Of a stretch of DNA of 64,000 nucleotides, positions 17,205 through 36,944 are shown piece by piece. Below the pieces are notes generated by a model. It saw only the letters and a program-made list of their open reading frames with translations. It did not search any database and was not told the DNA's origin. Position 1 is the stretch's first letter, and every line of letters starts with the position of its first letter. A program made the position numbers and the translations under genes. Source of the DNA: Lachnospiraceae bacterium (GTDB lineage: Bacteria > Bacillota > Clostridia > Lachnospirales > Lachnospiraceae); the NCBI GenBank assembly GCA_045629005.1, contig JAZQQJ010000025.1:1636-65635 (forward strand), written 5' to 3'.

Positions 17205-18899
17205 CTATTTGTATTCAACCGCATTTACTATTGTAGTGTTTATTTCTCCTGACGCAACAGAATATTCAAAAGTGTATGATATTACGTCATTAAGTTTGAT
17301 TCCGGCCAGTGTATTTCCGTATGCATCCGTCTCCTCCGATGCAATTCTCGAAGCAATATCCGTTGCAATAAGCTCGGATATTTTTTTAGACCCCTGGAAT
17401 GAGGAATGAAGGCTGTCAACGCTCTTCTCCGTCTTTGCATTATACAGATGATACGTCTGTTCAACGTATGTTCTTCCTACGATACTGTACCATTCACCGG
17501 TCATCTTCGCATTGTCAATGAGGAAAACACCCTTTTCCTTTGCAAGCTCACGTATTGTCTCTGCAAACGGATAAAGTCCGCTTCCTTCAGGCTCGTCGTG
17601 CTCACCAAGATCAGCCCCGTCCTTGCTCTTCCAAAACTTTGCAGTCTGCTGGCTTGTCACAAGCACAGGAACAACCTTATGTTCCAGACACCAATCAATC
17701 ATAATCGAAAGATATTCTTTCATTTCCTCGGTATTGCTGTATGTTCTGTCGTTTATTCCCTCCTGGATTATGAAATAATCGCCGGGCTTTGCATTGTTTG
17801 TAATTCCCTTAAAATACATTTCATACCAGCTTCTTGCATATGTTCCGCCTGCTCCGAGCGAGTCAACAATTACTTCATCGGTTGTATAATGGTGGAACAG
17901 CTGTCCCCATCCGGTCTGTGCCGTTCCTGCGGCAAACTCGGCCTCGTCAAGTCTGGGATAATACGTCTGTATCGTAGAATCGCCGGCGATATAAATGTGT
18001 GTCTTTCTGGGAATAAGCTGAGAAACCCTTCTGAATTCGATATAGCACATATTCCCGTCACCAATGCTGGAGAGTCTGGCTTCTCCACCTTCGACAACAA
18101 TATCCTGTGCACTGAATATTTTGTCTTCTCCTTTTCTGTCCGTTCCGCCGATTCCGACATTAACGCCAAATGAGCCTTCATTTATTCTCAAGGTGGATCT
18201 GCCCATTTCTGCCTTTTTCACGGTTACATCGTACATACCGTCGGGAATGGCCGCAACAAAACAATACGAATCTGTTCGGAGGTTTACACCTCTCGGATGC
18301 GTATCGACCTTTCCCTCAAAGCCGGCATCTTTTGTAGCATCATAAACCTCGGTCCAAGGGATATTAACATAACCGTCTTCCGCAGATGATGTATCCTTTC
18401 CGAGGCTGTATTTAAGAACAACAGACACTTCGTATTCAAGAACGGGCTTTTCAAAATCTACATGTACAACGCCATCTGCAGCCTTAACAACGACCTGCGT
18501 ATAATCATTCTCACCGAATACAGCCGTTACAAGGTAATCCGCATTCACACCGAAGTTCTTCATCGCAGAAACATCAAGTTCAACATATGTCACGGTATTT
18601 CCGGACTCTGCTTTTCCAACGATGGTAAACTCGTCCATATTGTATTGTCTTGGAGCAGGAGTACTCGTAGGCGGTTCGGACGTTGGTTCCTCCACAATTT
18701 CCGGTGCTTCTGTTACTGCAGCAGGTGCCTCTGTTAACACCGCATCCGGTGCTTCAGTCATTATTACCGCATGCGTAACATCTGCTGTGGGTGTAACAGT
18801 CTGCGTTCCTGTGTCTCCTTTACATCCCGTAAAAACTACGGCAGCAAAAACTGCTGCCGTAACAAAAATCAGATTTTTAAACTGCCTTTTCAGCATCAT
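17205..18899 (-). CDS. SGNH/GDSL esterase lipoprotein, CE12 rhamnogalacturonan-acetylesterase-like C-terminal domain
   Basis: Lipobox VFTGC follows MMLKRQFKNLIFV. ATG 18899/18896 is preceded by AAGGGG. SGNH blocks present: IYIAGDSTIQTY, GGTYARSW, QEGINDR, DSLH. The track N-terminal extension is rejected. Confidence 0.8.
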   Translation of the reverse strand: MMLKRQFKNLIFVTAAVFAAVVFTGCKGDTGTQTVTPTADVTHAVIMTEAPDAVLTEAPAAVTEAPEIVEEPTSEPPTSTPAPRQYNMDEFTIVGKAESGNTVTYVELDVSAMKNFGVNADYLVTAVFGENDYTQVVVKAADGVVHVDFEKPVLEYEVSVVLKYSLGKDTSSAEDGYVNIPWTEVYDATKDAGFEGKVDTHPRGVNLRTDSYCFVAAIPDGMYDVTVKKAEMGRSTLRINEGSFGVNVGIGGTDRKGEDKIFSAQDIVVEGGEARLSSIGDGNMCYIEFRRVSQLIPRKTHIYIAGDSTIQTYYPRLDEAEFAAGTAQTGWGQLFHHYTTDEVIVDSLGAGGTYARSWYEMYFKGITNNAKPGDYFIIQEGINDRTYSNTEEMKEYLSIMIDWCLEHKVVPVLVTSQQTAKFWKSKDGADLGEHDEPEGSGLYPFAETIRELAKEKGVFLIDNAKMTGEWYSIVGRTYVEQTYHLYNAKTEKSVDSLHSSFQGSKKISELIATDIASRIASEETDAYGNTLAGIKLNDVISYTFEYSVASGEINTTIVNAVEYK

Positions 18900-21105
18900 T
18901 CTTTTCCCCTTCGCCTTTGCTCTTCTGCATTTCAAGCTGCGCGGTAACGAGGCCGTAGTAAATACCCTTTTTCTCCATAAGCTCGTTGTGCGTACCAACC
19001 TCAGCAATGTGGTGTGCATCAATTACAACAAGTCTGTCAGCATTCTTAAGTGTTGAAAGTCTGTGTGCAATAGCAAACGTTGTCTTGCCCTCAATCAAAC
19101 GGTCGAGTGCGGTCTGGATAAGGTATTCGCTCTCTGTATCAAGGCTTGCCGTTGCTTCATCAAGAATGAGAAGCTTGGGGTTATTAAGTATCGCACGTGC
19201 TATTGCGATACGCTGTCTCTCACCACCGGAAAGGTTGTAGCCTCTTTCACCTACATAGGTGTTGTAACCGTCAGGTGTCTTACAGATGAAATCGTGTGCA
19301 TTGGCCATTTTCGCTGCCTGAATTATCTCCTCAATAGTAGCATCAGGCTTTGCAAAACGCAAGTTGTTTAGGATAGTGCCTGAGAAAAGGAATGTTTCCT
19401 GAAGAACAACACCAATCTGCGAATGGTAGTTCTCTGCTTTAATGTCCTTGATATTTATTCCATCAACAAGGATTTCTCCGTCATCAATATCATAAAGGCG
19501 CATTACAAGGTTAATAAGTGTTGATTTTCCTGTTCCGCTCGCGCCTACAAGGCCAATCATTTCACCTTTCTTAACCTTAAGATTGATATGCTCGAGGACA
19601 GGTTCATAGCTCTTGTATCCGAAGCATACATCCTTAAACTCAAAATCTCCCTGTATCTCATGCTCCTGAGCTTTCGACTTATCAACAATCTTAGGCTCCT
19701 GTTTCATAACATCGCTGATACGTTCGATACTTGTGATCATATTCATAAGTATTCTGGGAAGATTTGAAAGCCAGCCGACGTACATGTACATCATTGATGC
19801 ATAACTTACAAACTGCATAAGCTCGCCGACAGTCTTTGTATCGCTCAGAACGTTCTTACCACCCACGTACGTAATGATGTATGTACCGATACCCATCATA
19901 AACTGCATTGTCGGGAAGAATACCGCCCAGAAAACTTCGTTTCGTTTCTGTGTAACTGCATAGCTTTCAGCAGTTTCGCTGAAATGCTTTGTTTCCTGCT
20001 CTTCTTTGCCGTAGGACTTAACTACAGCCATACCTGTAATAACATCACGAAGGTTTGAATTGATTTTATCCTCTTTTTTACGTTGCATATGGAACCGTCT
20101 GTGAATGTTCTTTCTGAATGCAACGGAAATAGTTATTGAAACAGGAATAAAAACAAACGATAAAAGTGCCAGCTTCCAGTCAAGGATAAGCATGTATGTA
20201 ACGCTGAAAATAAGCATAATCGCAACCGAGAAAAGGTTGCAGAATGCATCAGCCATAAAGTCGCTGACTCTTCTTGTATCGCCCGTAACTCTGTTCATAA
20301 GGTCTCCGGGCTTTCTGTCGGAAATGAAAGCCAAAGAAAGACTCTGAACCTTTGCGTAAAGCTTCTTTCGAAGATCCATGCTTATTGTGGAGCCAAGCTT
20401 CGCGCAAAGATAGCTTTTTGCCACATTGACCACAAGTGAAAAGATGGTAACGGCAAGCATTCCGCCAAGGCATATCGCAGCCAGAGACATTGTTCCTTTT
20501 CTGTCAAAAAGGACATCATCGACAAGCTTCTTCTGAATTTCGGGATTCATAAGCGACGTGACTGAAGAAAGAATCATTAGTATAAAAATGATTACAAGCC
20601 TGCCTTTATAAGGCTTAAGCAGCGTAAAGAAGTCGTTTATGAGTCCTTCTTTTTTGTGTGAGCAGTATGGGCACTCTTTTGTGCCGGGAAGAGCTCTGCC
20701 GCACTTCGGACACATCTTCTCATATTCTTCGCTTTCAACCTTTCGCGTACCACCTGCAAGCAACTCTCTTGCGCCCTTTGCAACATATGCATATCTTGCA
20801 AGATGTTTGCCCGAATAGCGTACAACAAGCTGTGCTTCATCGTTTGATTTAAGAACAACGAAAAGAACTCCGCAGGATATTTCTGTCTCAGCTTTAATAT
20901 CCGTAATGTCAGAGAGCAGAATTGTCTTTTTAAGAACGTCCTTTTCCAGAACAAAAATCCTCTGTGTCGTTACAACAACAAACGAACCGGAAAGCCAGCC
21001 CCCCTCGTCATCAATGTCGTAGGGCACGCAATAATATATCTCTTCACCGTTTTTAAGGGAGAGCAGTTTTTTATTTTGTTCCGATAAACCGTAATCGAGT
21101 ATCAA
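18877..21105 (-). CDS. ABC exporter half-transporter B with N-terminal PH-like domain and zinc ribbon
   Basis: TTG start with GGGAGG 7 nt upstream. The first ~125 aa are soluble (GSFVVVTTQRIFVLE). Next comes CPKCGRALPGTKECPYC, then 6 TM helices, then an NBD (GASGTGKST, LSGGERQR, LLILDEATASLD). Confidence 0.85.
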   Translation of the reverse strand: MILDYGLSEQNKKLLSLKNGEEIYYCVPYDIDDEGGWLSGSFVVVTTQRIFVLEKDVLKKTILLSDITDIKAETEISCGVLFVVLKSNDEAQLVVRYSGKHLARYAYVAKGARELLAGGTRKVESEEYEKMCPKCGRALPGTKECPYCSHKKEGLINDFFTLLKPYKGRLVIIFILMILSSVTSLMNPEIQKKLVDDVLFDRKGTMSLAAICLGGMLAVTIFSLVVNVAKSYLCAKLGSTISMDLRKKLYAKVQSLSLAFISDRKPGDLMNRVTGDTRRVSDFMADAFCNLFSVAIMLIFSVTYMLILDWKLALLSFVFIPVSITISVAFRKNIHRRFHMQRKKEDKINSNLRDVITGMAVVKSYGKEEQETKHFSETAESYAVTQKRNEVFWAVFFPTMQFMMGIGTYIITYVGGKNVLSDTKTVGELMQFVSYASMMYMYVGWLSNLPRILMNMITSIERISDVMKQEPKIVDKSKAQEHEIQGDFEFKDVCFGYKSYEPVLEHINLKVKKGEMIGLVGASGTGKSTLINLVMRLYDIDDGEILVDGINIKDIKAENYHSQIGVVLQETFLFSGTILNNLRFAKPDATIEEIIQAAKMANAHDFICKTPDGYNTYVGERGYNLSGGERQRIAIARAILNNPKLLILDEATASLDTESEYLIQTALDRLIEGKTTFAIAHRLSTLKNADRLVVIDAHHIAEVGTHNELMEKKGIYYGLVTAQLEMQKSKGEGEKNDAEKAV

Positions 21106-21758: not shown

Positions 21759-24275
21759 TCATTCCCTCAGTGCAAGCGCCTTGGTCTGCAGTTCCATAAG
21801 TTTATAGTAGGTACCGTGAAGTTCCTCAAGCTCCTTGTGCGTACCACGTTCGGTAATCTCACCGTTGTCGATTACACAAAGGAAGTCAGCATCACGAAGC
21901 GTTGAGAGACGATGCGCTATTGATATTGTCGTACGTCCCTTAACAAGGTAGTTTATGGACTCCTGAATAGCTCTTTCGGTTTCGGTATCAACCGATGCGG
22001 TAGCTTCATCGAGAATAAGTATCTTCGGGTTTGCAAGGATTGCACGCGCTATTGATATACGCTGACGCTCACCACCGGAAAGCTCCCGTCCGGATGAACC
22101 CACAACAGTATTATAGCCGTCGGGCATTCTGAGAATGAAATCATGCGCACTGGCAAGCTTTGCGGCTCTGATGATATCTGCCTTTGAAGCGTTCGGATTA
22201 GCATATGCGATGTTTTCCTCAATAGTACCCATGAAGATGTATGTCTCCTGGGAAACCATTGCTACATTCTTTCTGAGATCGCTGAAGGAAAGATTCCTTA
22301 TATCAATTCCATCAAAGAGAATGCTACCCTCCTGAGGGTCGTACATACGTGAAATGAGGTTAACAAGCGTTGTTTTACCTGCGCCGGATCGTCCGACAAT
22401 TCCAAGCATGCTTCCTTCAGGAATCAGAAGGCTTACATTCTTAAGGACAGGCCTGTTTATTTCATAGCCGAAGGTAACATTTCTGAGTTCGATTTCACCT
22501 CTGGGCTCCTTCAAAGGAACCGGGGTCTCAGGCTCGACAATTTCAGGAATTGCATCGATAATCTCAAACATACGCTGTGCAGCGTTCATGCTGTCTGCCC
22601 ACGACTGGAACACTCTTGTCATAAATCTCATCGGACCGTCAAGCTGTCCGGCATAACCGACGAAGGTAACAAGAATACCAAGTGCCATTGTGCCGCGCTT
22701 CAAAATAAAGTATGCGCCCAAAAGCCATATGATAAGTGACGAAGCACTATGTGAAAGCTGGAATACAACAGAGAAAACATTCTGGATACGTACAATAGTC
22801 ATTTCAGTATCCTTAAGTCTTCCGTTTACGGTGTGGAATCTGTTTTCCTCTTTCCTCTCCTGACCGAAGGCCTTAACTACTCTCGCACCCGTAAGGTTAT
22901 CGTTAACCTGGTTGTTTACGGAACGCTCTGCCCTGTGTCTTCTGCCGTATGCATTCCAGAATTTCGGACGATACTTGAAGCTGAAAATGAATGCAATCGG
23001 AAGCAGAAGCATGGAAATCACAGTCATCTGCCAGTTAATCGTAAACATAACCACAAGAGTGGATATGAGTGTAACCGAGTGAATGAAAATATAAGGCACA
23101 TCATCAATAAAGAAGCCTGTTACACGCTCTGCATCGTTCAGTACACGTGTCATCAGTGTACCGGTCTGTCTGTTCTTGAAAAAGCTTATCGAAAGCTTTC
23201 CCATTGCATTGAAGATGCTCTTCTTAATGTCACATACAACATCCGCAACAATCTTTACATTCATTGTGCCCTGCAGAATGGAAAGCACCTGTCCTGTAAC
23301 CTTTGCAGCAAACATCGTAAGAATAATAAGGAGAAGCGCTAAAAGATATTCGCCGTGCGGGATGCCGAAGTTTGCAAGCAGTTCATCATTTTTGTTAAGA
23401 ACGTAATCGTAAAGAATCGTTCCGTTTAAATACGGCCATACAAGGTTAAGCAGCGCCACAAGAACATATGTGACAACAAGTATTACCATGCGCCATTTAT
23501 AAGGCGAGAAGAATTTCAGGACGCGGAAGAAAATGGACCTTCTGTCCAAACAGTAAGGACAAACCTTACGTTCCGGATTCGGATACATTCTGCCGCATTT
23601 AGGGCAGTACTCGCTGTTCTCTTCGTCTCCTTTGCCACCAGGTCCGTGACCACCGAAACCTCCGGGACCACCCGGACCACCAAAGCCACCCGGACGCGGA
23701 CCACCAAAGCCTCTTCCCGGACCGCCGAAACCACGTCCGCCAAAGCCTCCGAAGCCTCCGAAGCCTCCGCCATTTTCTTCTTTTCCAGGCAGACGGGCAA
23801 ATTCACGTGAAATACGGAACATGCTCTTTCTGTAAAGGTTTGAGAACACGGTGACGGTATGGTCGATATCATCATTGTCACGCAAAACAAGAAGGCTGCA
23901 GGCAACCTGTGGCTCTATCATTAATTTCTTATAGTCAGCTGTCGGAAGGCGCTTCACCTGCCAATTATGTTTCTCTTCGCTGTCGTCCTTCCTGATGACT
24001 GCTCCCTTAAACAGATGGACACGCCCCTTTTCGCATGGACATGAAAAGATGTAGATGGCTTCTTCGGTAAGAACAACATAGCCATCTTCGTAAGCACATT
24101 CTGTATTCATATCGGATGCTGAAGCGGCAAGAACTTTTTCGTTCTCTCCACCCTGTTCGGAAATAAGCTGCTTTATCTGCTTCGGGAGCTTGACTTCCTT
24201 ACGTGGGGATTCTTCGAATGGCGGTTTATCCGGTGTTAATGCATTATTTTCTGTTGGAAGTTTTTCTTCTGCCAT
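21759..24275 (-). CDS. ABC exporter half-transporter A with N-terminal PH-like domain, Gly-rich tract and zinc ribbon
   Basis: ATG 24275 preferred over track GTG 24323. Order is a soluble N-domain, a GGFGG/RG tract, CPKCGRMYPNPERKVCPYC, a TMD, then an NBD (GRSGAGKTT, LSGGERQR, ILILDEATASVD). Confidence 0.85.
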   Translation of the reverse strand: MAEEKLPTENNALTPDKPPFEESPRKEVKLPKQIKQLISEQGGENEKVLAASASDMNTECAYEDGYVVLTEEAIYIFSCPCEKGRVHLFKGAVIRKDDSEEKHNWQVKRLPTADYKKLMIEPQVACSLLVLRDNDDIDHTVTVFSNLYRKSMFRISREFARLPGKEENGGGFGGFGGFGGRGFGGPGRGFGGPRPGGFGGPGGPGGFGGHGPGGKGDEENSEYCPKCGRMYPNPERKVCPYCLDRRSIFFRVLKFFSPYKWRMVILVVTYVLVALLNLVWPYLNGTILYDYVLNKNDELLANFGIPHGEYLLALLLIILTMFAAKVTGQVLSILQGTMNVKIVADVVCDIKKSIFNAMGKLSISFFKNRQTGTLMTRVLNDAERVTGFFIDDVPYIFIHSVTLISTLVVMFTINWQMTVISMLLLPIAFIFSFKYRPKFWNAYGRRHRAERSVNNQVNDNLTGARVVKAFGQERKEENRFHTVNGRLKDTEMTIVRIQNVFSVVFQLSHSASSLIIWLLGAYFILKRGTMALGILVTFVGYAGQLDGPMRFMTRVFQSWADSMNAAQRMFEIIDAIPEIVEPETPVPLKEPRGEIELRNVTFGYEINRPVLKNVSLLIPEGSMLGIVGRSGAGKTTLVNLISRMYDPQEGSILFDGIDIRNLSFSDLRKNVAMVSQETYIFMGTIEENIAYANPNASKADIIRAAKLASAHDFILRMPDGYNTVVGSSGRELSGGERQRISIARAILANPKILILDEATASVDTETERAIQESINYLVKGRTTISIAHRLSTLRDADFLCVIDNGEITERGTHKELEELHGTYYKLMELQTKALALRE

Positions 24276-24383
24276 ATTCCAGACCCTTTTCAAAAAAATA
24301 GTTATTTCAAAAATACACTGCACTTCGCGAGCGCTGCTCGTTCAGTTTGCGCTGTGGCATCAGATGCCTTAACTGCTACAGAC

Positions 24384-27927: not shown

Positions 27928-29727
27928 TTAGAACTCTCTCTTCTTTGTTGCAAAAGCTGCGAATGCTGCTGCAAGGAATGTAAGGAGGAGAACTTCACCG
28001 AGTCTGCTGTCGCCTGTCTTAGGTGTATTATCAGGATCTACAGAGATTCTGCCTTCACCTGCGAGGTTAGCATACTGAGCCTTTGTGATTGTAGGAAGCT
28101 TGCCGGAAGGTGTTTCTGTTTCAGCAAAGGACTTAACATAGTTTGCAAGGCAGAGATAATCTTCCATTACATAGTCCTTAACAAGCTCGCCGCCTGCAAA
28201 CATTGCAAAACCGTCACCAAGATTTCTGAGTGTATAGTTTGTACCTGCAATGTTGTACTTCTTTGCAAGATCAAGCTTCTCATACTTGCCTGTTTCATTG
28301 TTAAGAACCTGAACGTTCTGTACTCTGTACTGACCGTTGCCTGCGCTTACCCAGATGCCTGTTTCGTCTTCAACAACGTTTGCATTAACGTCTGTGTGGA
28401 TTTCATACTTAAGGCCTGCTGTATGAAGGAAGCCACCGCTCTCGCTGTTGCCTACGCCCTTGTAGGACCACTCAAGCATATCAAGAATCTGCTGACCTGT
28501 AACGGAAACGAGACACATAACGTTACCGAATGTATGAACTGTCTTACAGGTCTTATATGTAATTTCGCCTGCAGGAATGTCTGCACGGATGCCGCCGCCG
28601 TTCATGATGGCTACATCAACATCAAGGCCTTCAGTTTCTTTAAAGAGGTAGTAAATAGCATCTGCACAGAAATCACCAAGGTTTGTTTCCTGTGAACGGA
28701 TGAGACGGTTACCTGTTGCGGGATCGTATGCGAAGATGCCTTCTTCTGCATAACCGATTACTGTGCCGAGCTGGCCGTCAACATCTGCCATAAGCTTGTC
28801 AACGCCTGTCTTAACTTCTGCAACTGAACCTGTATATTCGGAAATAAGCTCTGTCTTAATGGAGAGGTCCTTACCGATTGTCATCTTACCAATGTTGCCA
28901 AGGTAACTTCCGGACTGTGTGAGAATAACTGTCTTTCCATCCTTGTCCTTAACTTCCTGTGAAACTACTGTAGAGTGTGAATGTCCGTCGATGAATGCTG
29001 CGAGGCCGGATACGTTAGCAATAATATCTGTGCTTCTCCAAGGAGCGGATTCGCCATCAATACCACAGTGACCAAGAGCAATAACGATGTCAGCGCCTGC
29101 TGCCTTAGCGTCGTCAATGCCCTTCTGAACAGATGCATAGAGAGCCTTACCGTCTTCGCCGCCATCGATAACGTATGCCCAATTACCATTTGCATCCATG
29201 AAGTACTTAGGTGTGGACTTTGTGATTGTTTCGGGAGTAGTGATACCAACGAAAGCAACCTTACAGCCGTTAAGCTCGAAAATCTTATAAGCGTCAACTA
29301 CGTTCTTTCCGTCTGCTGTCTTAAAGTTACAGGAAACGTAAGGAATCTTACCGTTGATGATTTCGAGTGCTCTGGGCATGTCATAGTCGAACTCATGGTT
29401 ACCCATTGTAGCAAGGTCATAGCCTGCTGCTTCCATAAGGGAAACAATAGCTGCACCCTTATCCATGGAACCATAAGCAGTACCCTGTACATGGTCACCT
29501 GCATCAACAAGAAGAACTGCCTTGCCTGCATCCTGAAGTTCCTTCTTCATAGCTGCAACGCCGTCATAAGAGATGGTCTTGTCAACGTAAGTGTGGACAT
29601 CGTTTGTGTAGAGAATGGTGATGTCATCCGAAGGTGCTGCTGCCTTCACGCTGTTAAGCGGAAGGAGTGAAATGAGGAGTGCTGCTGTTAAAATAGCTGC
29701 TCCCGCCTTTTTGAAAAAGCTTTTCAT
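27928..29727 (-). CDS. Secreted, cell-wall-sorted 5'-nucleotidase / metallophosphoesterase (UshA-like)
   Basis: ATG 29727 follows AAGGAGGA. Signal peptide ends ...LNSVKA. Metallophosphatase motifs NDVHTY, DAGDHVQG, GNHEFD and DGHSH. C-terminal TPKTG, then a hydrophobic helix, then KKREF. Confidence 0.85.
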   Translation of the reverse strand: MKSFFKKAGAAILTAALLISLLPLNSVKAAAPSDDITILYTNDVHTYVDKTISYDGVAAMKKELQDAGKAVLLVDAGDHVQGTAYGSMDKGAAIVSLMEAAGYDLATMGNHEFDYDMPRALEIINGKIPYVSCNFKTADGKNVVDAYKIFELNGCKVAFVGITTPETITKSTPKYFMDANGNWAYVIDGGEDGKALYASVQKGIDDAKAAGADIVIALGHCGIDGESAPWRSTDIIANVSGLAAFIDGHSHSTVVSQEVKDKDGKTVILTQSGSYLGNIGKMTIGKDLSIKTELISEYTGSVAEVKTGVDKLMADVDGQLGTVIGYAEEGIFAYDPATGNRLIRSQETNLGDFCADAIYYLFKETEGLDVDVAIMNGGGIRADIPAGEITYKTCKTVHTFGNVMCLVSVTGQQILDMLEWSYKGVGNSESGGFLHTAGLKYEIHTDVNANVVEDETGIWVSAGNGQYRVQNVQVLNNETGKYEKLDLAKKYNIAGTNYTLRNLGDGFAMFAGGELVKDYVMEDYLCLANYVKSFAETETPSGKLPTITKAQYANLAGEGRISVDPDNTPKTGDSRLGEVLLLTFLAAAFAAFATKKREF

Positions 29728-29865
29728 AAAAATCCTCCTTTGCCCCAACGGGCTTATGATATCTACATTTTCCTCGTTTTTGCACAAAAAGTAAATGGTT
29801 TCAAAGCATTATTTTAGTTATTTTTTAAATAATCCTTACATTTCTGTGACTTAATAGTATTTTTC

Positions 29866-29894
29866 TTGACTTTTTGTGTTTGCACGCGTAAGAT
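29866..29894 (+). promoter_or_regulatory. Candidate sigma-A promoter of the 162-aa protein gene
   Basis: TTGACT (29866-29871), a 17-nt spacer, then TAAGAT (29889-29894). Confidence 0.5.
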
Positions 29895-29958
29895 ACACGC
29901 ATACATTAAATGGATAATTTTTGGATAAAGATGAAAACCAAAGAAAGGAGACTTAATT

Positions 29959-30447
29959 ATGAAAGAATTTGTCTCACCCGAATTAACACCTATTGAAGAT
30001 CTTGTTGAAGGCGTATACGCTTTGAGTGGTGCTGAACCGCCTATGCGTTATAATTCCGATTGGTCTGCTTCTGCTGCAGGCATTTCTCACGATTCCGGAA
30101 GTCATACTGATTTTCATATCATTTTAAAGCATAATAGCGACTATGCATCCCCTGCAGGACGTCAGGTTGTAACAGAGTGGGTAACCGATTTTAAAATCAA
30201 TTCCTTCGAAACTGATTCCGGTTCATGTACTTATGAAATTACGAACGGTGGTTATGGTTTTAAGTTAACAACAACCAAAGGCTACAACAATCAAGGCGAA
30301 TCCGTTGACTTAAGAGTTCGACTCACCGGAGAAACTGAATATGGTCATACAGCTGTTGGAAAAAGTTCTGAAGGCACTATTCCCGAGAGTGACCATCATA
30401 TCACGTCTGGCCTTACATTAGTCAACTGGAATTATTTAGGAGAATAA
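29959..30447 (+). CDS. Hypothetical 162-aa protein, no signal peptide, leader-like acidic N-terminus
   Basis: AAAGGAG RBS. Begins MKEFVSPELTPIEDLVEGVYALSGAEPP, and the remainder is rich in Gly/Ser/Thr/Asn. I recognise no family. Confidence 0.6.
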   Translation: MKEFVSPELTPIEDLVEGVYALSGAEPPMRYNSDWSASAAGISHDSGSHTDFHIILKHNSDYASPAGRQVVTEWVTDFKINSFETDSGSCTYEITNGGYGFKLTTTKGYNNQGESVDLRVRLTGETEYGHTAVGKSSEGTIPESDHHITSGLTLVNWNYLGE

Positions 30448-30462
30448 ATAATTAGCATATTA

Positions 30463-30487
30463 AGCACCACATTTGTGGTGCTTTTTT
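30463..30487 (+). terminator. Intrinsic terminator/attenuator between the 162-aa gene and the ABC exporter
   Basis: AGCACCAC (30463-30470), loop ATTT, GTGGTGCT (30475-30482), followed by TTTTT. Lies 16 nt after the stop and 16 nt before the next ATG. Confidence 0.7.
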
Positions 30488-30502
30488 CAAATTTGAGGGA
30501 TT

Positions 30503-32281
30503 ATGGGAAAAAAAACTATATCTGATAAACTTAAAATTAACAAAATCATTGAAAAACTAAAGGACCTTCTTTGGCTTTGGCCGTTTGCCAAAAAAAACTT
30601 TTTCTTCATTATTGTTTTTTCTCTTCTAGGTCTTACAGGAACCGTCACAAGCCTTATTAATAGCCTCGTTTCAAAAGATTTGGTTGACATAATCACAGGT
30701 CACAAAACCGCAGAGTTATTAAAAACCTTCCTTCTTCTCATTGGAACAGCGGTAGTAACAACAATTATCGGTCAAATAAGCTCCATTATTTCTACCAAGA
30801 TCACACTAACCGTTCAGAATAAGTTTCAAGGAGATATTTTTGATAGTATTCTTTCAACAGAATGGGAAGCTCTGTCCAATTATCATTCGGCTGAATTAAT
30901 GATGCGATGGGGTGGTGATTCGTCCACTATTGCAAACAATGTACTTACTCTTGTTCCAAACATTATTAATTATTCTATTAGTGTAATTTCAGCCCTTATT
31001 ATTGTTCTTCAATATGATGTATCATTCGCCGTAATAACCCTCCTGTGTGTACCTATAAGTTTATTTTCTTCTCGCCTTTCTTTAAAACGCATGAGAAGCG
31101 GCAATATGGAAACTCACCAGTCGCAAACTAAGCTTTCATCTTTTTTGCAGGATACTTTCGGAAACATTCAAACCATAAAAGCCTTGGATATGATAAAGCT
31201 TTCATCCTCAAGGCTTCGTGAATACCAGCAAAACTCCGCAGATGCACGCATACACTACCAATGGCTTGTTGCTAAAAATTCGCTCATACTGACTTTAGTG
31301 TCATTATTAACAACGTATATTATTTACGGATGGGGAATATATCGTGTATGGTCTGGGGTTATTACTTATGGCACCATGACGCTTTTCCTTTCTTTATCAA
31401 ATACCCTTTCAAATTCGCTCCAATGCTTTGTAAGACTTCTCCCTACCACTGTTCAACTCGCCAATTCAGCAAAGCGCGTAAGAGAGCTTTGCGAGCTTCC
31501 TAAAGAAATCGATTCTTCGCGAAATGAAGTTGCCTTATTTTTTGAAAAGCATAAAGCAGAAGGAATCAGCCTCTGTGTCAGAGGGCTTTCTTATCAATAC
31601 CCTACCGGAACAGAAGTTTTTGCCGATGCATCCTTTGAAGCACATCCACATGAGATTATATCTTTCGTTGGTCCTTCAGGAGAAGGAAAAACCACTATGC
31701 TTCGTTTTCTTTTATCCATAATTAGGCCTCAATCCGGTAAAGGTTTTATTTGCGCAGGCAATTCCGTACCAGAAGATAACACTGACCAACTGACGCTGAA
31801 TGCTTCTGTTCGTCAGCTTATTGCATATGTTCCACAAGGTAACACAATGCTTTCGGGTACAATCGCTGATAATATGCGAAACGTAAATCCTGACGCTACT
31901 GATGAGGATATAATTAATGCTTTGAAAACAGCATGCGCATGGAATTTTGTTCAGAAACTTCCTGACGGAATTAATACCCCATTGCAAGAGCGTGGAGGTG
32001 GTTTTTCAGAAGGTCAGGCGCAACGTCTTTCTATTGCTCGTGCACTTATAAGGAAGTCACCAATTCTTCTTTTGGATGAAGCAACTTCCGCTCTTGATAT
32101 TGAGACAGAAAAAAAGGTTCTGACTAATATTCTCGAGGATGAATATCCTCGCACAACAATTGTCACAACCCATAGACCTTCAGTATTAAAAACATGCAAC
32201 AAAGTATATTCCATAAGAGATATGGGTTGCAAAGTTCTCACCGAAGAAGAAATCCACAAAATGCTTGTGGATTATATGTAA
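30503..32281 (+). CDS. ABC exporter (fused TMD-NBD, no C39 peptidase domain)
   Basis: 592 aa with 6 TM helices. Walker A GPSGEGKTT, signature FSEGQAQRL, Walker B ILLLDEATSALD. Confidence 0.85.
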   Translation: MGKKTISDKLKINKIIEKLKDLLWLWPFAKKNFFFIIVFSLLGLTGTVTSLINSLVSKDLVDIITGHKTAELLKTFLLLIGTAVVTTIIGQISSIISTKITLTVQNKFQGDIFDSILSTEWEALSNYHSAELMMRWGGDSSTIANNVLTLVPNIINYSISVISALIIVLQYDVSFAVITLLCVPISLFSSRLSLKRMRSGNMETHQSQTKLSSFLQDTFGNIQTIKALDMIKLSSSRLREYQQNSADARIHYQWLVAKNSLILTLVSLLTTYIIYGWGIYRVWSGVITYGTMTLFLSLSNTLSNSLQCFVRLLPTTVQLANSAKRVRELCELPKEIDSSRNEVALFFEKHKAEGISLCVRGLSYQYPTGTEVFADASFEAHPHEIISFVGPSGEGKTTMLRFLLSIIRPQSGKGFICAGNSVPEDNTDQLTLNASVRQLIAYVPQGNTMLSGTIADNMRNVNPDATDEDIINALKTACAWNFVQKLPDGINTPLQERGGGFSEGQAQRLSIARALIRKSPILLLDEATSALDIETEKKVLTNILEDEYPRTTIVTTHRPSVLKTCNKVYSIRDMGCKVLTEEEIHKMLVDYM

Positions 32282-33507
32282 TTATTCTCAACACGTTCTT
32301 TACATATAATTGCTGCCTCATCATCCATATTACATTGAAGTTGAAAAACATCTGTACATTTTACAACATTCTCAGCTATTTTTAGCAAAATATCAAGATC
32401 TTCAACCGACCAATTAGGACTGATAAAACGATGCATTATATGCGTCGTTTTTTCTTGTTCCGTCAATTCATTTATCTCGTTTTTTTCTGATTGTTTCAGC
32501 ATAACGATGGAACCCACTTCATATTTGCCTTTATTATACATTTCTGATGTTCCGCACCAAGGAAGACCGCAAATATAAGTTTTTCCGTTTTCAATATAAA
32601 TTAAATTGACATCTCCGTTAAAAATAACATTTTTAAAGAGTTTCACCCATAAAGAAGCATGCGTACTTTTACCAACACCAGACATTGCAGAAAATAAAAT
32701 AGCCTTATCCTTGTGAATTATTGAAGCAGAATGTAAAACCGTATAGCCACACTTCTGAGCAAAATATAAAAATACAAATCTTGTAGCTTCGTAAATCTCA
32801 TTCTTAATAATATCTTCATCGCCACTTGACATCCCTATTTCGGCGTACTTTCCATCTTTACTTATAAAAAGCCACCTAACAAATTTATGATTATTAAGAA
32901 ATGCAACGTATCCTGCACGAGCCTTGTGCAGGCACATTCTTTCATCAAACAAGAAATAAGAATGATGCATTGAAAATCTTTTCCCCACACCCCCTGACTC
33001 ATTCATACCATCACAACATTTCACAACAATTTTCTGAACATTCTTTACATCGCTCAAATCATCACTAAATAGTTCAAAATTGTCAGGGATTATTCTCTTG
33101 TCGCCATGTATTTCAATGCCAATTTCGCCGATTTTATACTTTCCAACAAGTGGTCTTTCCAGTTGGTCATAATAACTGTTTTCTCGTATTTCGAAGCCGC
33201 GTAATTCTTTTTCAAATTCATTCGCACTATACTCCAAAAACGCATTTGCAATCATCATTTGAACGGAAAACTCTTTAACTTTATCAGATACAAGTTTTTT
33301 TTCTTCTTCCCCTTCACATTCAAAAAATAAACAACTCTTCTCAACAAGTTCATCAAGCGTAATATCACTATCCAACAAATTCCATATGTCCGCTCCGGTA
33401 GAATTTAGATTAATCTCCTTCCGCATTCTTGCAGCTGCTTTCCCCGTAACAAGAAGATATGGTGCGCCGCTTATATATCTAAGTACAAAATCAGGGTTAC
33501 GTCTCAT
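32272..33507 (-). CDS. PqqD/RRE-like domain fused to HPr-kinase-like P-loop kinase domain
   Basis: ATG 33507 follows GGAGG. N-terminus reads NPDFVLRYISGAPYLL...STGADIWNLLDSDITLDELVEKSCLFF (PqqD-like). C-terminal part reads VLHSASIIHKDKAILFSAMSGVGKSTHASLW (HprK C-terminal-like P-loop). Confidence 0.6.
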   Translation of the reverse strand: MRRNPDFVLRYISGAPYLLVTGKAAARMRKEINLNSTGADIWNLLDSDITLDELVEKSCLFFECEGEEEKKLVSDKVKEFSVQMMIANAFLEYSANEFEKELRGFEIRENSYYDQLERPLVGKYKIGEIGIEIHGDKRIIPDNFELFSDDLSDVKNVQKIVVKCCDGMNESGGVGKRFSMHHSYFLFDERMCLHKARAGYVAFLNNHKFVRWLFISKDGKYAEIGMSSGDEDIIKNEIYEATRFVFLYFAQKCGYTVLHSASIIHKDKAILFSAMSGVGKSTHASLWVKLFKNVIFNGDVNLIYIENGKTYICGLPWCGTSEMYNKGKYEVGSIVMLKQSEKNEINELTEQEKTTHIMHRFISPNWSVEDLDILLKIAENVVKCTDVFQLQCNMDDEAAIICKERVENNYI

Positions 33508-33611
33508 AGTAAGCCTCCAAACATTTATCTTAATGATAATATCATTTTTAGCGAATAAAACCAATTAAGAAATCCTAACCATTTTTCATATAGCCTATTT
33601 TGAGACACTTC

Positions 33612-33640
33612 TTGCACATTTTGTCCAAGTCTTCTATAAT
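33612..33640 (+). promoter_or_regulatory. Candidate sigma-A promoter of the peptidase/lipoprotein genes
   Basis: TTGCAC (33612-33617), a 17-nt spacer, then consensus TATAAT (33635-33640). Confidence 0.55.
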
Positions 33641-33747
33641 CAAATTTGTTGTTATCTGTTCATTTAACGAACAATCAAAGCTATTACATTTTTGTCTTAC
33701 CACCACTTTTTTATGGTTTAAAATTTCTATTTATCAAGGAGCTCACT

Positions 33748-34185
33748 TTGGCTAAACTTGACGTTGAAAAAACACTTATGGCAGGATTGCCGGTTACATT
33801 CCCGCTCACCGGAATGAGTATGAATCCTCTTTTTATGGGCGGACGTGACTACATTACCGCCGAGCCCGTTCCGGAAGGTTATAAATTCAAGCGCTTGGAC
33901 GTAGTTCTTTACCGACGTGAAGGAAGTGTCCTTGTACTTCATCGTATATATAAGGTTAAGCCCGAAGGCTTATATCTTGTCGGAGACCATCAGAAGGAAA
34001 TTGAAGGTCCTCTCCCGTATAAACAGGTTCGTGGCATTATGACAAGTGCCATCCGAAAAGGAAAAACGCTTACGCTGAATGAAAAATGGTACAAGCTCTA
34101 CTCATGGGGATGGATGCTCATTCGCCCCTTCAGACTTCCTATCCTTAATCTTTACGTGAAGATTAAGCTCAAAGTAAAGAAATAG
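33748..34185 (+). CDS. S24/S26-family serine peptidase (signal-peptidase/LexA-like fold), ~145 aa
   Basis: TGMSMNPLF (catalytic Ser context), DVVLYRR, VLVLHRIYKV, LVGDH. TTG 33748 lies 7 nt after AAGGAG, with ATG 33778 as the alternative. Track start 33646 lies at or upstream of the predicted TSS. Confidence 0.6.
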   Translation: MAKLDVEKTLMAGLPVTFPLTGMSMNPLFMGGRDYITAEPVPEGYKFKRLDVVLYRREGSVLVLHRIYKVKPEGLYLVGDHQKEIEGPLPYKQVRGIMTSAIRKGKTLTLNEKWYKLYSWGWMLIRPFRLPILNLYVKIKLKVKK

Positions 34186-34288
34186 CGTTTAAAATAAACG
34201 CATAACATAAACCAAACACAACGTACATTTTATGTACAAGCATAATTCAAACATAATGTTTAAAGCAAACACCAAGGAGCAATTGCTA

Positions 34289-34849
34289 ATGAATAAGCTC
34301 AAAAAAGCAGCATCTGTGTCTCTAATCCTTTTTATGCTGACATCTCTTTTGGCATGCGGCACAAAATCAGGTTACAGACACACATTGAATACAATAGACG
34401 ATAATTTAAATCTGGATTTTGAGTTCCTCCAGAAAATGGACGATGTCGACCTCACCGCATATCACGCATATGAGGATACTGTGACTACAGACTATGTTTC
34501 TGACGCGTATTGGGACGAATACAAGAGTGATGGCGAATATGTTCTATACTCCGTGTCTCCGTTCCCAAACTACACATCCGAAAGCATTTACGTTACAAAG
34601 ATTTATATTTCCGACCCCAACGTCTCATTCTTCGGATGCACTCTGAATTCCGGCTCGTCCGCCATTCAGGAAGCCTTTGAAAAAGCGGGCTTCACCGTTG
34701 AAAACAAGTTCCATAACGGAGCAACAAGAATTACTGCAGACCTTGGAAACGGAATGGTAATGGGCGTATATATTTCCGCAACAGAAAGATATTTTGCAAT
34801 TGCCGCAAAGGTATCCGAGAATTCAAGGCTTATAATCGACTGGAGATGA
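34289..34849 (+). CDS. Lipoprotein of unknown function
   Basis: ATG 34289 follows AAGGAG. MNKLKKAASVSLILFMLTSLLACG contains a lipobox. No recognisable domain. Confidence 0.65.
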   Translation: MNKLKKAASVSLILFMLTSLLACGTKSGYRHTLNTIDDNLNLDFEFLQKMDDVDLTAYHAYEDTVTTDYVSDAYWDEYKSDGEYVLYSVSPFPNYTSESIYVTKIYISDPNVSFFGCTLNSGSSAIQEAFEKAGFTVENKFHNGATRITADLGNGMVMGVYISATERYFAIAAKVSENSRLIIDWR

Positions 34850-34977: not shown

Positions 34978-35889
34978 CTATCTTCTCATCTGCTGTCTCT
35001 GCTGAGCTCTCATATAATCATTAAGGCATTGATCTATTTTAGTGCGTATATAATCACGCCACTCATCTTTAACAAGATAGTATAAATATGACTCCTTAAC
35101 GAACTCCTGCGGAAGTCCGCGTCCAACAATCTTAAAGTTCACAAACCCTCTGTCGATGTAGTTCTGTATCTCATCATTTGAGATAAATGCAGGACGGTTT
35201 GCACACTCTTCAAAAACTCTTGCGCCGCTCTTATTCGGACAGTGAAACTCTGTCGAACGGTCAAACTCCAATTGTGAAAGCGACTCAGCCTTATAATGCT
35301 CCGCACGCTTCGGGCAATTAGGGAAACATATCTCATTGACAAGAATCTCTATTTTGCCTGCCTGAGGCTCAAGTGCTTTCAAAACAGCTTCATCATGATT
35401 CAAATCATAATCAAGAACCACAAGGAAGTAGTCTTTATCAACTTCTTCAAGAATAGCCTGCATGTCTGTCATACGCTTTGTCGTTGAAGAAATCAGCTTA
35501 AAATTCGGATATTCTTCACGAATATATTTTTCAAGGCATGAACGGTTGCAAAGCACCTGATTCATACCATTGTCTGCGAGTCTCATAATGAGATTGCAGT
35601 ACGTATCATAAACATGCTTTTCCTCGAGAAGAGAATTGGTCCACGTAAATCGAACGGGCACTCCATGAGCATTGTAGCCCTTAATAAGGCGCTCCATATC
35701 TCCCTTTGCAGCAGTTCCGAACACTGCTCGTCCTCCGTTCCATATCGCACCGGGAAACGTACCGTAAACACTGCCGATTTTGTATCCATCACGGAATTTG
35801 CTTGGATTGTCATTCATCAGACTGATTACAATCTGGTTTAATGTACTAAAATATACAAATCCCGGAAGGTGCCAATATATATCTGCCAT
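34978..35889 (-). CDS. Uncharacterised four-Cys protein, paralog B
   Basis: ATG 35889 lies 7 nt after AAGGAG. Shares HLPG, KIGSxxGxFP, WxGGR, ADNGMNQVL, EILVNxxCxPxCPxRxxHY and RGFxNFKIxGR with the upstream gene. Confidence 0.6.
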   Translation of the reverse strand: MADIYWHLPGFVYFSTLNQIVISLMNDNPSKFRDGYKIGSVYGTFPGAIWNGGRAVFGTAAKGDMERLIKGYNAHGVPVRFTWTNSLLEEKHVYDTYCNLIMRLADNGMNQVLCNRSCLEKYIREEYPNFKLISSTTKRMTDMQAILEEVDKDYFLVVLDYDLNHDEAVLKALEPQAGKIEILVNEICFPNCPKRAEHYKAESLSQLEFDRSTEFHCPNKSGARVFEECANRPAFISNDEIQNYIDRGFVNFKIVGRGLPQEFVKESYLYYLVKDEWRDYIRTKIDQCLNDYMRAQQRQQMRR

Positions 35890-35900
35890 AGGCTTCTCCT

Positions 35901-36851
35901 TTACGGCCATACGCCGGGTCTGGGTTTATTCTTAATAAGAATACGGTTAGACTCAAGATTTGCAAGGAGCTGAATACGGATAAAGCCCTGATACTCAGGC
36001 TTGATAAGGTAGAAACAGTATGTCTCAACAAGTGAGAAAAGGTTACCCGTTCTGCCTTCAATCTTGAAATTGTTAAAACCTCTGGGAAGGTATTCGTTAT
36101 AAATAGCTTCAGGTGAAACGTATGTCTTATAGTCCTGAATTGTGTAAATACAATTGCGTTCGCCGTACTCGCAAGACCACGGAATATGAGGAATATGCTT
36201 GTCAGGCGGAAGCTCTCTGTTTGCAAGCTCGATACGATGATTCTTTGCAACATTTTCGTAATGTGCACCACGTCTCGGACAGTCAGGTATGCAACAAGGG
36301 TTAACAAGAATCTCACATCTGGAAGGATCATTTACCTTATCAAGTATGTCCCACTCGTTGTTAAGATTGTAGTCTGCAACAACAAGGTAATAGTCTTTTG
36401 AAAGTTCTTCGTTAAGGCCTTCAAGCGTACGTATTTCCTTGCAGGTAGAACTGCAAATTTTAAATGAAGGGTATTTTTCCCTAATATACTCTTCAAGAAT
36501 CGGTGAAACCACAAGGACCTGGTTCATACCGTTGTCTGCTTCCTGCATGCAGAAATTGCAGTAAAAATCATCAAGTTCTTCTTTTTCAAGAATAGGATTG
36601 GTGTAGGTGTAGCGAATAGGAATTCCCTGATTATTAATTGCTTTAATTACATTTCTGACATAAGTGGCATCACACTGGTCACCAAGAACAAGGCGTCCGC
36701 CTGCCCACGCAGAAGTCGGAAATTCACCAAAGAATGAACCGATTTTAATTCCTTCTCTGAAGTATTCCGGTTTTGTTTTTAAGAGGTTTAACATGAGCAT
36801 GTTGAGCGGATAATTAAACCTTAATCCGGGTAAATGAAAAATAACGTCCAT
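35901..36851 (-). CDS. Uncharacterised four-Cys protein, paralog A
   Basis: ATG 36851 follows GAGGAG. By eye about 35-40% identical to paralog B. Its stop lies 11 nt before the start of paralog B. Confidence 0.6.
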   Translation of the reverse strand: MDVIFHLPGLRFNYPLNMLMLNLLKTKPEYFREGIKIGSFFGEFPTSAWAGGRLVLGDQCDATYVRNVIKAINNQGIPIRYTYTNPILEKEELDDFYCNFCMQEADNGMNQVLVVSPILEEYIREKYPSFKICSSTCKEIRTLEGLNEELSKDYYLVVADYNLNNEWDILDKVNDPSRCEILVNPCCIPDCPRRGAHYENVAKNHRIELANRELPPDKHIPHIPWSCEYGERNCIYTIQDYKTYVSPEAIYNEYLPRGFNNFKIEGRTGNLFSLVETYCFYLIKPEYQGFIRIQLLANLESNRILIKNKPRPGVWP

Positions 36852-36944
36852 AAATATCTCCTCATAATTTATAAGATGGAAAACATTATACCACAAAAGC
36901 TTCTACGTACAAAGTAATACTTTGCTTATTATATTTCAAATGTT

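Follow-up and report, generated by a model that had tools for sequence, protein, structure and literature searches.

A Lachnospiraceae cassette with a fused recognition element and kinase is a probable variant of the linear polyphosphorylated peptide pathway

Introduction

In May 2026, Popov et al. described "linear polyphosphorylated peptides" (LPP) in Bacilli (Nat Commun 2026;17:6633; PMC13381572). The type cluster, lppA-K-B-S-D-N, comes from Paenibacillus alginolyticus DSM 5050, and the conserved core of such clusters comprises LppS (a SipW-like signal peptidase I), LppB (a discrete recognition element, or RRE, for ribosomally synthesised peptides that are modified post-translationally, RiPPs), LppK (an HprK-like kinase), LppN (an NTP_transf_5 protein) and LppD (an MsbA-like exporter) (PMC13381572). 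Here we examine a 64,000-nucleotide stretch of a Lachnospiraceae genome (assembly GCA_045629005.1, contig JAZQQJ010000025.1, positions 1,636 to 65,635; hereafter "the window"), in which four adjacent genes encode a 162-residue candidate precursor protein, an ABC exporter, a 411-residue protein that joins an RRE-like domain to an HPr-kinase-like domain, and a small serine peptidase. We conclude that this cassette, from a gut or rumen bacterium of Lachnospiraceae type, probably belongs to the LPP pathway for maturation and export, as a Lachnospiraceae-type variant with the 162-residue protein as its substrate; this reading draws on homology and on analogy with the published system.

The LPP work provides the experimental framework for this comparison. 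LPP precursors are 35-200 residues long and carry the motif YxxPxVLxHQxIxFETxxS, and a [Y/W]xxPx[L/V] leader motif is bound by the RREs of both lasso peptide and LPP systems (PMC13381572). LppK places several phosphates on Ser3 of the core and LppS cuts after Thr-1; this cleavage requires LppB, and unphosphorylated precursor is poorly processed (PMC13381572). The main text of that study does not mention a fused RRE-kinase, Lachnospiraceae or Clostridia, and its supplementary table holds a few Clostridial peptidases with "other RREs" (clusters 4, 9 and 20 of the sequence similarity network, SSN) that were not followed up there (PMC13381572).

An initial annotation of the window, made from its sequence, had proposed an undescribed maturation route. 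Because a route that combines an RRE, an HprK-like kinase, a signal-peptidase-I-like peptidase and an MsbA-like exporter has now been published, that reading is outdated, but the covalent RRE-kinase fusion itself is still undescribed. Relative to the published system (PMC13381572), the new features are this fusion, a minimal form of the cassette that lacks the NTP-transferase, and conserved cores of protein size.

Results

Four intact open reading frames (ORFs) lie within 29959-34185, at the coordinates given in the initial annotation. The precursor and exporter genes are on the plus strand. The fusion gene lies on the minus strand, converges with the exporter gene and overlaps it by 10 bp; the peptidase gene is on the plus strand and diverges from the fusion gene across a 240-bp spacer. 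For comparison with genuine LPP clusters, we brought in bona fide LPP loci through a metagenome scan seeded with the published LppS sequences. These loci have the A-K-B-S-D-N gene order and ...FET..S precursors such as ...YRAPEVLNHQPIRFETAQSWNPG.... Hidden Markov models (HMMs) of the window families matched them with E values of 1e-18 to 1e-22 for the kinase, 1e-6 to 1e-8 for the RRE, 1e-12 to 1e-16 for the peptidase and 1e-44 to 1e-56 for the exporter. The kinase domain aligned with the kinase of one LPP locus (L095) at an hhalign probability of 98.3% (E = 1.5e-14), and BLASTP found 24% identity over 181 residues for the same pair (2e-8); in this alignment, an NGD motif of the window family stands opposite SDE of the LPP kinase.

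The peptidase and RRE comparisons also point to the Clostridial proteins in the published supplement. The peptidase family HMM matched LppS at 3.5e-17 (BLASTP 3e-5) and the peptidases of SSN clusters 4, 9 and 20 at 1e-29 to 1e-36, while the RRE-domain HMM matched the discrete "other RREs" of clusters 4 and 9 at about 1e-17 and LppB at 2e-7. The models that define the LPP domain groups (TIGR04249/TIGR04352/TIGR04355, TIGR02228, TIGR02203/TIGR02204 and PqqD; PMC13381572) match the window genes as well, the kinase models weakly. A search of a plasmid collection with LppS returned no match. By sequence and profile comparison, then, all four parts of the window cassette are homologous to an experimentally characterised system. 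The initial annotation had considered the product class unassignable; the homology of all four parts now supports an LPP-type assignment.

The fusion gene (32272-33507, minus strand) encodes 411 residues. Searched as a single sequence, the protein matched PqqD (PF05402) at E = 1.4e-4, just under the gathering score, both HprK_rel_A and HprK_rel_B at 1.2e-3, and the lasso PqqD chaperone model at 3e-3. The family profile was more informative: it matched the lasso RRE TbiB1, the best match of the fusion RRE among solved structures, at E = 2.6e-6 over residues 2-93, followed by PbaB1 (1e-3) and LppB (0.056). An AlphaFold2 (AF2) model of the protein scored 92.6 on the predicted local distance difference test (pLDDT) and 0.90 as predicted template-modelling score (pTM). 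In this model, the secondary structure of residues 1 to about 95 (33223..33507, minus strand) fits the winged helix-turn-helix of a PqqD-type RRE. Foldseek matched residues ~120-411 to ATP-dependent phosphoenolpyruvate carboxykinase (PEPCK; E = 5e-6) and to HPr kinase/phosphorylase (HPrK/P; E = 1e-4, probability 1.0). The PEPCK alignments cover about 350 columns and include the beta-rich middle domain (residues ~118-230; 32818..33156, minus strand), which resembles the PEPCK N-domain and is also present in stand-alone kinases.

The C-terminal part (residues 231-411 plus the stop codon; 32272..32817, minus strand) is a predicted HPrK/PEPCK-fold P-loop kinase domain of the ScmC family, and its Walker-A motif, S273-AMSGVGKST-282, maps to 32662..32691 on the minus strand. 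An alignment of 39 homologues showed the same three blocks: about 95 residues at the N-terminus, a middle part rich in beta structure, and a C-terminal part with the conservation pattern H...SGxGKST...NGD. H259, F272, S276, G277, G279, K280, T282, W287, N297, D299, P316 and G319 are invariant in these homologues, and many of the fusion homologues carry precomputed matches to PF27840 (ScmC). Profile and structure evidence together settle the domain calls beyond what the weak single-sequence matches allow, and on that evidence the 411-residue protein is a PqqD-type RRE fused to an HPrK/PEPCK-fold P-loop domain, as the initial annotation had proposed.

The precursor gene (29959..30447, plus strand) is preceded by a strong ribosome-binding site, AAAGGAGA, 7 nucleotides upstream of the start. 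Its 162-residue product has no Pfam or NCBIfam match and consists of a leader, a short linker and a beta-sandwich core of about 125 residues. The leader, residues 1-24 (MKEFVSPELTPIEDLVEGVYALSG; 29959..30030, plus strand), contains the motif F4-x-x-P7-x-L9, and E17, S23 and G24 are invariant among the aligned homologues. By analogy with the lasso and LPP leaders, F4-x-x-P7-x-L9 is the predicted RRE-binding motif, and the E17/S23/G24 motif at the junction is presumably recognised by the kinase, the peptidase or both.

The leader-like N-terminus had been noticed in the initial annotation, and its conservation is now clear from a wider census. With the relaxed pattern [FYW]xxPx[LVIFAM]...E...SG, we found 51 leader-bearing ORFs beside the cassette in 41 loci, often two or three per locus. 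Most encode 115-170 residues and a few are shorter; nearly all share the N-terminal consensus MKNYEKPVVLANEELAEGVYAASG, and most carry ...EGVYAxSG. This one leader type is joined to at least four unrelated core types. A single leader on many cores, in several copies per locus, is typical of a substrate and not of an accessory protein. By comparison, a regular expression for the FET..S leader of published LPP precursors found precursors in the LPP loci L092, L095, L099 and L105 and none in loci L001-L090.

The core belongs to a conserved protein family. The small proteins of the first loci compared (141-169 residues, none with a Pfam match) are homologous to one another. A profile of six sequences retrieved 68 clusters, as against four relatives in a search with the 162-residue protein alone; the family has no Pfam match and its named members are all "hypothetical protein". 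In the AF2 model of the precursor (pLDDT 72), residues 1-31 are disordered and residues 35-160 form a beta-sandwich with weak fold likeness to CBM3, CBM2 and cohesin-type modules. Weak fold matches also include the copper-binding protein YcnI. The core contains a His-rich motif, SH(N/D)xGSH(T/S)D (30085-30120, residues ~43-53), in which N45, G47 and H49 are invariant or nearly so, and a metal site in the core is possible. Six cysteines conserved in most of the family are missing from the window copy.

The size and fold of the 162-residue protein raise the question of whether it is the substrate at all. At 162 residues it is far larger than a typical RiPP precursor, it contains a conserved folded domain, and the precursors of related split systems have only 41-67 residues. 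It could instead be an accessory or immunity protein or one unrelated to the cargo, with the true substrate a short unannotated peptide or a product encoded elsewhere, and the cassette might be mainly a resistance or export module. We regard this alternative as quite improbable. A search for other ORFs with a leader-like motif in 29700-34300 found none, whereas the RRE-binding motif stands at the extreme N-terminus of the 162-residue protein itself, and the same leader precedes at least four unrelated core families, often in two or three copies per locus. Moreover, published LPP precursors reach 200 residues (PMC13381572).

The fourth gene (33748..34185, plus strand) is best read from a TTG start at 33748, with AAGGAG 6 nucleotides upstream, and encodes 145 residues. 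Its best NCBIfam matches are TIGR02228, the archaeal-type signal peptidase I model (3.5e-5), and SipW (2.5e-4), and its family profile matches SEC11C and SEC11A, the catalytic subunits of the eukaryotic signal peptidase complex, at 1.5e-6. Ser24 (GMSMNP), His65 (VLHRI) and Asp80 (VGDHQ) are invariant in the alignment; the GxSMxP motif is present in all 62 homologues and xxHRx in 58 of them. These three residues align with S29, H68 and D93 of LppS, which were proven catalytic by mutation (PMC13381572). The initial annotation had described a divergently transcribed S24/S26-type peptidase of about 145 residues. Its length and orientation stand, and the invariant Ser-His-Asp triad narrows the class to S26B (SipW/SEC11-like) and away from the S24 LexA type. 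The suggestion that this enzyme is the leader protease fits its homology to LppS.

The exporter gene (30503..32281, plus strand) encodes 592 residues with an ABC_membrane domain from residue 38 followed by ABC_tran, and the best NCBIfam models are of the MsbA type (TIGR02204, 6e-71; TIGR02203, 2.6e-67), making it a likely counterpart of LppD. The Pfam/NCBIfam scan found no C39 domain in this protein, and a transmembrane domain that begins at residue 38 leaves no space for one, in line with the initial annotation. Exporter identity across cassettes is 52-84%.

To what extent these genes belong together can be judged from their distribution. A scan of one genome per GTDB species with a profile of 12 sequences turned up kinase-domain relatives in at least 596 loci. 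Of the 80 best loci, about 45 were full-length fusions, nearly all of them from Lachnospiraceae; Butyrivibrio sp. MC2021, Fusicatenibacter saccharivorans and Anaerobutyricum hallii DSM 3353 are among the carriers. When 1.84 billion representatives were searched exhaustively with the profile, 10,992 matched at E<=1e-3, of which 1,035 reached E<=1e-30. The top 150 matches were all full-length fusions, so the architecture is common rather than rare; at 50% identity there are at least 150 full-length fusion clusters, mostly from Lachnospiraceae. The first six loci examined differ in their flanks; where the fusion homologues are 68%, 43%, 31%, 30% and 28% identical, the flanks are entirely different, and all these loci keep the fusion, a protein of 141-169 residues with no Pfam match and an ABC exporter of 567-592 residues in varying orientations.

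We extended this comparison in an HMM census of 91 sequences (the fetched loci and the window), which included 50 fused and 30 split loci, the latter with a stand-alone kinase and a stand-alone PqqD protein. Among the fused loci, 45 of 50 have the exporter, 38 of 50 have the peptidase, usually divergent and less than 100 bp from the fusion gene, and most have a leader-bearing ORF. The peptidase is present in 23 of the 30 split loci, where the usual order is kinase-RRE-peptidase-exporter. Gene order thus varies, and components may be fused or split, as in L008, where a stand-alone kinase gene lies beside a stand-alone PqqD gene. Together, these results link the fusion to an exporter, a peptidase and a small leader-bearing protein across about 50 loci, the neighbourhood conservation that the initial annotation had suggested as a check. 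Another of its checks, HMM matches of 32272-33507 to PqqD and HPrK, gave weak single-sequence matches with support from the family profile and structure. Neither check refuted its reading.

Several points weigh against assignment of the cassette to the LPP pathway. Single-sequence HMM matches of the kinase and RRE domains are weak (E = 1e-3 to 1e-4). Beyond the opening [Y/F]xxPx[L/V], the rest of the LPP leader motif (VLxHQxIxFETxxS) is missing from the window precursor, which reads xxIxDxxEGVYAxSG with a different Glu-to-Ser spacing. A search of all 64 kb for NTP_transf_5 (PF14907, LppN), a core LPP component, found no match (best E = 5.5). Instead of the variable, often Gly/Asn/Pro-rich tails of published LPP precursors, the cores here are folded and conserved domains, which could mean that a different modification is the relevant one. 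In six of the eight loci with window-type precursors, no peptidase gene lies within about 8 kb, so that leader removal may be non-obligatory or carried out elsewhere; only the window and its closest relative, L001, have one nearby.

The NTP-transferase is variable among relatives as well. It occurs in 26 of the 50 fused and 12 of the 30 split loci (Pfam-confirmed, 3e-39) and is absent from all eight loci with window-type precursors. Its absence from the window, together with a core that lacks the six cysteines of the family consensus and a G+C content below that of the flanks, could indicate that the cassette is a decaying, non-functional remnant of a fuller LPP-like cluster. The chance of this seems to us very small, given that all four ORFs are intact with good ribosome-binding sites, that all catalytic residues are kept and that the form with no NTP-transferase recurs in at least eight loci, including a cultured Butyrivibrio. 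The decay model also has to contend with the substitution pattern: against L001, the precursor has a dN/dS of 0.10, the exporter one of 0.06 and the fusion one of 0.09, despite dS above 1.7 (the peptidase was left out, as its dS was not computable). These three of the four genes are under purifying selection.

The comparison with L001 also bears on the history of the site. Amino acid identity is 68-88% across the cassette (dS 1.7-2.4), and the adjacent 5'-nucleotidase is 95% identical (dS 0.55); G+C content is 0.36-0.39 in the cassette and about 0.43 in the flanks. With divergence far above that of the nucleotidase and lower G+C, the cassette looks like the product of allelic replacement or rapid turnover at one fixed chromosomal site.

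Relatives of the cassette show further arrangements. A 372-residue protein in L007 (P0038; 1844-2962) has an N-terminal ScmC-like kinase domain and a C-terminal SipW-like peptidase, by its domain matches a second type of fusion within the same system. In three metagenomic loci (L122 1757-4018, L143 310-2319 and L144 595-2604), a kinase-like domain lies inside stop-to-stop ORFs of 670-750 codons, which suggests additional fusion architectures. Nine loci (L021, L029, L033, L035, L037, L042, L048, L051 and L053; eight fused, one split) have an extra discrete PqqD ORF, in several of them directly beside the peptidase gene. In such two-RRE loci, the fused RRE might serve the kinase and the second RRE the peptidase. 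The HMM census detected no second RRE in the window.

Split versions of the cassette have neighbourhoods of their own. In L008 (4940-7811) and L010 (93-2964), the split cassette encodes a kinase of 306 residues, a PqqD protein of 91, a 152-residue precursor, an exporter and a peptidase, and lies back to back with a 77-residue ORF, a radical SAM/SPASM protein (463 residues) and a 415-residue Cys-rich membrane protein, which could be a second RiPP system or an extension like that of SynChlorMet (SCM) cassettes. Six loci from other Clostridia (L076, L084, L057, L071, L074 and L089) have split kinase-RRE-peptidase-exporter operons with tandem precursors of 41-67 residues, whose leaders read MKxY(V/I)KPxF...EE(R)(F/L)AxGS and whose cores are Cys-rich; these operons add one more uncharacterised branch to the superfamily. 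DUF4874/DUF4832 proteins (12 loci) and GT4 glycosyltransferases (6 loci) are among the neighbours that recur beside the fused cassettes, for example at L027 4168-5613 and L021 5976-7076. A polysaccharide-locus context has likewise been reported for LPP, which these neighbours echo.

Upstream of the precursor gene, sigma-70-like hexamers (TTGACT-17-TAAGAT; 29866..29894, plus strand) match the consensus and mark a possible promoter. The scan found 16 such promoter-type sites against 15.3 expected by chance from shuffled sequence. Since this count is close to chance, the hexamers are weak evidence, and the claim of the initial annotation that the precursor has its own promoter cannot be affirmed. 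An Rfam scan of the window found no family. Two tandem paralogues of 310 and 331 residues (34978-35910 and 35901-36896, both minus strand) show a faint Peptidase_U32 match and have homologues of 35-37% identity in L008 and L009, about 2.3 kb from the split-cassette peptidase gene and beside CbiA/CbiJ. We rejected these paralogues as cassette members, since L008 and L009, where the homologues stand beside cobalamin genes, are the only loci in which they recur; the association is probably coincidence. A gene for a 205-residue lipoprotein-like protein was likewise rejected; it is present only in the syntenic L001. Two more ABC exporters are encoded in the window (18877-21105 and 21759-24323, both minus strand), with N-terminal extensions of 170 and 280 residues that have no Pfam match, and L001 has a similar 824-residue exporter at the syntenic position.

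Discussion

By analogy with the LPP system, the cassette most likely phosphorylates a small secreted protein, removes its leader and exports it; the initial annotation, too, had expected a peptide or small protein that is phosphorylated and exported. From the gene set, its conserved linkage, the folds and catalytic motifs, the part-by-part homology to LPP and the purifying selection, we infer the following course, including the residue that is phosphorylated, the cleavage site, the order of steps and the role of the exported protein. The leader motif F4-x-x-P7-x-L9 would dock, in beta-strand form, into the PqqD-type RRE at the N-terminus of the 411-residue enzyme, and the junction E17-G-V-Y-A-x-S23-G24 would thereby be held at the active site of the tethered HPrK/PEPCK-fold domain. 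Using ATP, the P-loop domain would then add at least one phosphate to a serine. By analogy with Ser3 of the LppA core, Ser23 is the best candidate, because it is the only invariant hydroxyl residue in the junction and because its distance from the aromatic anchor (+19) is near that of LppA Ser3 (+18).

The SipW/SEC11-like peptidase would next cut off the leader of about 20 residues at or beside the junction. Judged by the LPP spacing, the cut would fall near V19/Y20 and leave Ser23 as residue 3 or 4 of the core; a classical -3/-1 rule would fit an alternative cut, A21-x-S23|G24. In the last step, the MsbA-like exporter would secrete the phosphorylated beta-sandwich core of about 14 kDa.

The chemistry of the kinase step is where this scheme meets its main competitor. 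The P-loop domain might act with no phosphoserine product, through another NTP-dependent step such as nucleotidylylation, through phosphorylation of Tyr20 or of the core, or mainly as an ATP-dependent chaperone or gate that passes the leader-bound protein on to the exporter. The ScmC and HprK-related families are mostly uncharacterised, with NCBIfam scores far under the cut-offs, and the nearest structural matches are to PEPCK rather than to HPrK/P. Identity to the LPP-type kinase is just 24%, with NGD in place of its SDE, and a Tyr or Phe at position 20 is conserved in the junction as well. We nevertheless consider a non-phosphoserine role unlikely: LppK and, as cited in PMC13381572, the paeninodin-type kinases are the sole homologues that have been tested, and they are serine kinases or polykinases, and the His, Walker-A and acidic residues are invariant in the window family. 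Ser23 is, besides, the sole invariant hydroxyl of the junction, as position 20 is Phe in several members.

A broader reading of phosphoserine-directed maturation, which we offer tentatively and hold to be possible rather than probable, is that the fused cassettes of Lachnospiraceae form a leader-guided system for the maturation and secretion of proteins instead of peptides. Whole CBM-like beta-sandwich domains of 12-17 kDa would be recognised by way of a RiPP-type leader, phosphorylated at the junction and then licensed for cleavage and for ABC export independent of Sec and Tat. Where relatives retain NTP_transf_5 and glycosyltransferases, sugar or nucleotide groups might be attached through the phosphoserine, or the protein might be anchored by it to surface polysaccharide. 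Such a system would extend RiPP logic to folded extracellular proteins of abundant gut and rumen bacteria.

The LPP class, described in May 2026 from Bacilli, has a probable and much larger sister group in Clostridia, chiefly in gut and rumen Lachnospiraceae. Butyrivibrio sp. MC2021, F. saccharivorans and A. hallii DSM 3353 are cultured and tractable hosts for its study. The window-type form, which has no NTP-transferase and in some relatives no peptidase, is the simplest setting for asking what purpose the predicted phosphorylation serves, and the fusion, as a single chain, is a natural model for the hand-over of a leader-bound substrate from an RRE to an HPrK-fold kinase.

Comparison with other known systems places the cassette more precisely. 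As the initial annotation had remarked, RiPP core maturases are missing: a Pfam/NCBIfam scan of the genes at 14.9-46.5 kb found no Asn-synthetase-like lasso cyclase, transglutaminase (B2 protease), radical SAM, YcaO or LanM domain. Export by a double-glycine/C39-ABC bacteriocin system was rejected, as there is no C39 domain and the leader ends in AxSG, with no GG. In the SynChlorMet cassette, ScmC occurs with radical SAM/SPASM maturases. The window P-loop domain falls in the same ScmC/HprK-related superfamily (TIGR04249, PF27840), but it scores 12.9 bits with TIGR04249, where the cut-off is 125, and it has no radical SAM/SPASM partner. This assignment was rejected because no Radical_SAM domain was found in the scanned window genes; L008-L010 do have a radical SAM/SPASM gene beside the split relative, but it falls outside the conserved gene set. 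A literature search on SynChlorMet and ScmC found nothing relevant.

Paeninodin-type lasso clusters (HPrK-like kinase PadeK, split B1/B2, cyclase C, exporter D) share with the window a B1-like RRE, an ABC exporter and an HPrK-like kinase, which in paeninodin phosphorylates a precursor serine in a leader-dependent manner. In contrast, the window has no Asn-synthetase-like cyclase and no transglutaminase-like B2 protease, its leader protease is a serine signal-peptidase homologue, and its substrate is far too large for a lasso peptide. A lasso cluster was rejected for want of cyclase and B2 protease, neither of which occurs among the recurrent neighbours of 49 fused loci. Bacillus subtilis SipW, a housekeeping ER-type signal peptidase that processes TasA and TapA, belongs to the same family as the window peptidase and has the same Ser-His-Asp arrangement. 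Unlike the SipW substrates, the window precursor lacks a hydrophobic Sec signal peptide, and it would be recognised through its RRE-bound leader and exported by the ABC transporter.

The LPP clusters remain the closest relatives. Both systems have a homologous HprK-like kinase (TIGR04249/TIGR04352-type), a PqqD-type RRE, a SipW-like Ser-His-Asp peptidase and an MsbA-like exporter; both have a leader that opens with an aromatic-x-x-P-x-hydrophobic RRE-binding motif and an invariant Ser near the leader-core junction; and both lack a macrolactam cyclase. They differ in that the window RRE is covalently attached to the kinase N-terminus rather than a discrete protein, that the window has no NTP_transf_5 (LppN) gene and that the peptidase is not always linked in the window sub-family. 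EGVYAxSG replaces IxFETxxS in the leader, a conserved beta-sandwich of about 125 residues replaces the short variable tail as the core, and the host is a member of the Lachnospiraceae (Clostridia) rather than of the Bacilli, with a peptidase and RRE that are nearer to SSN clusters 4, 9 and 20 than to cluster 1.

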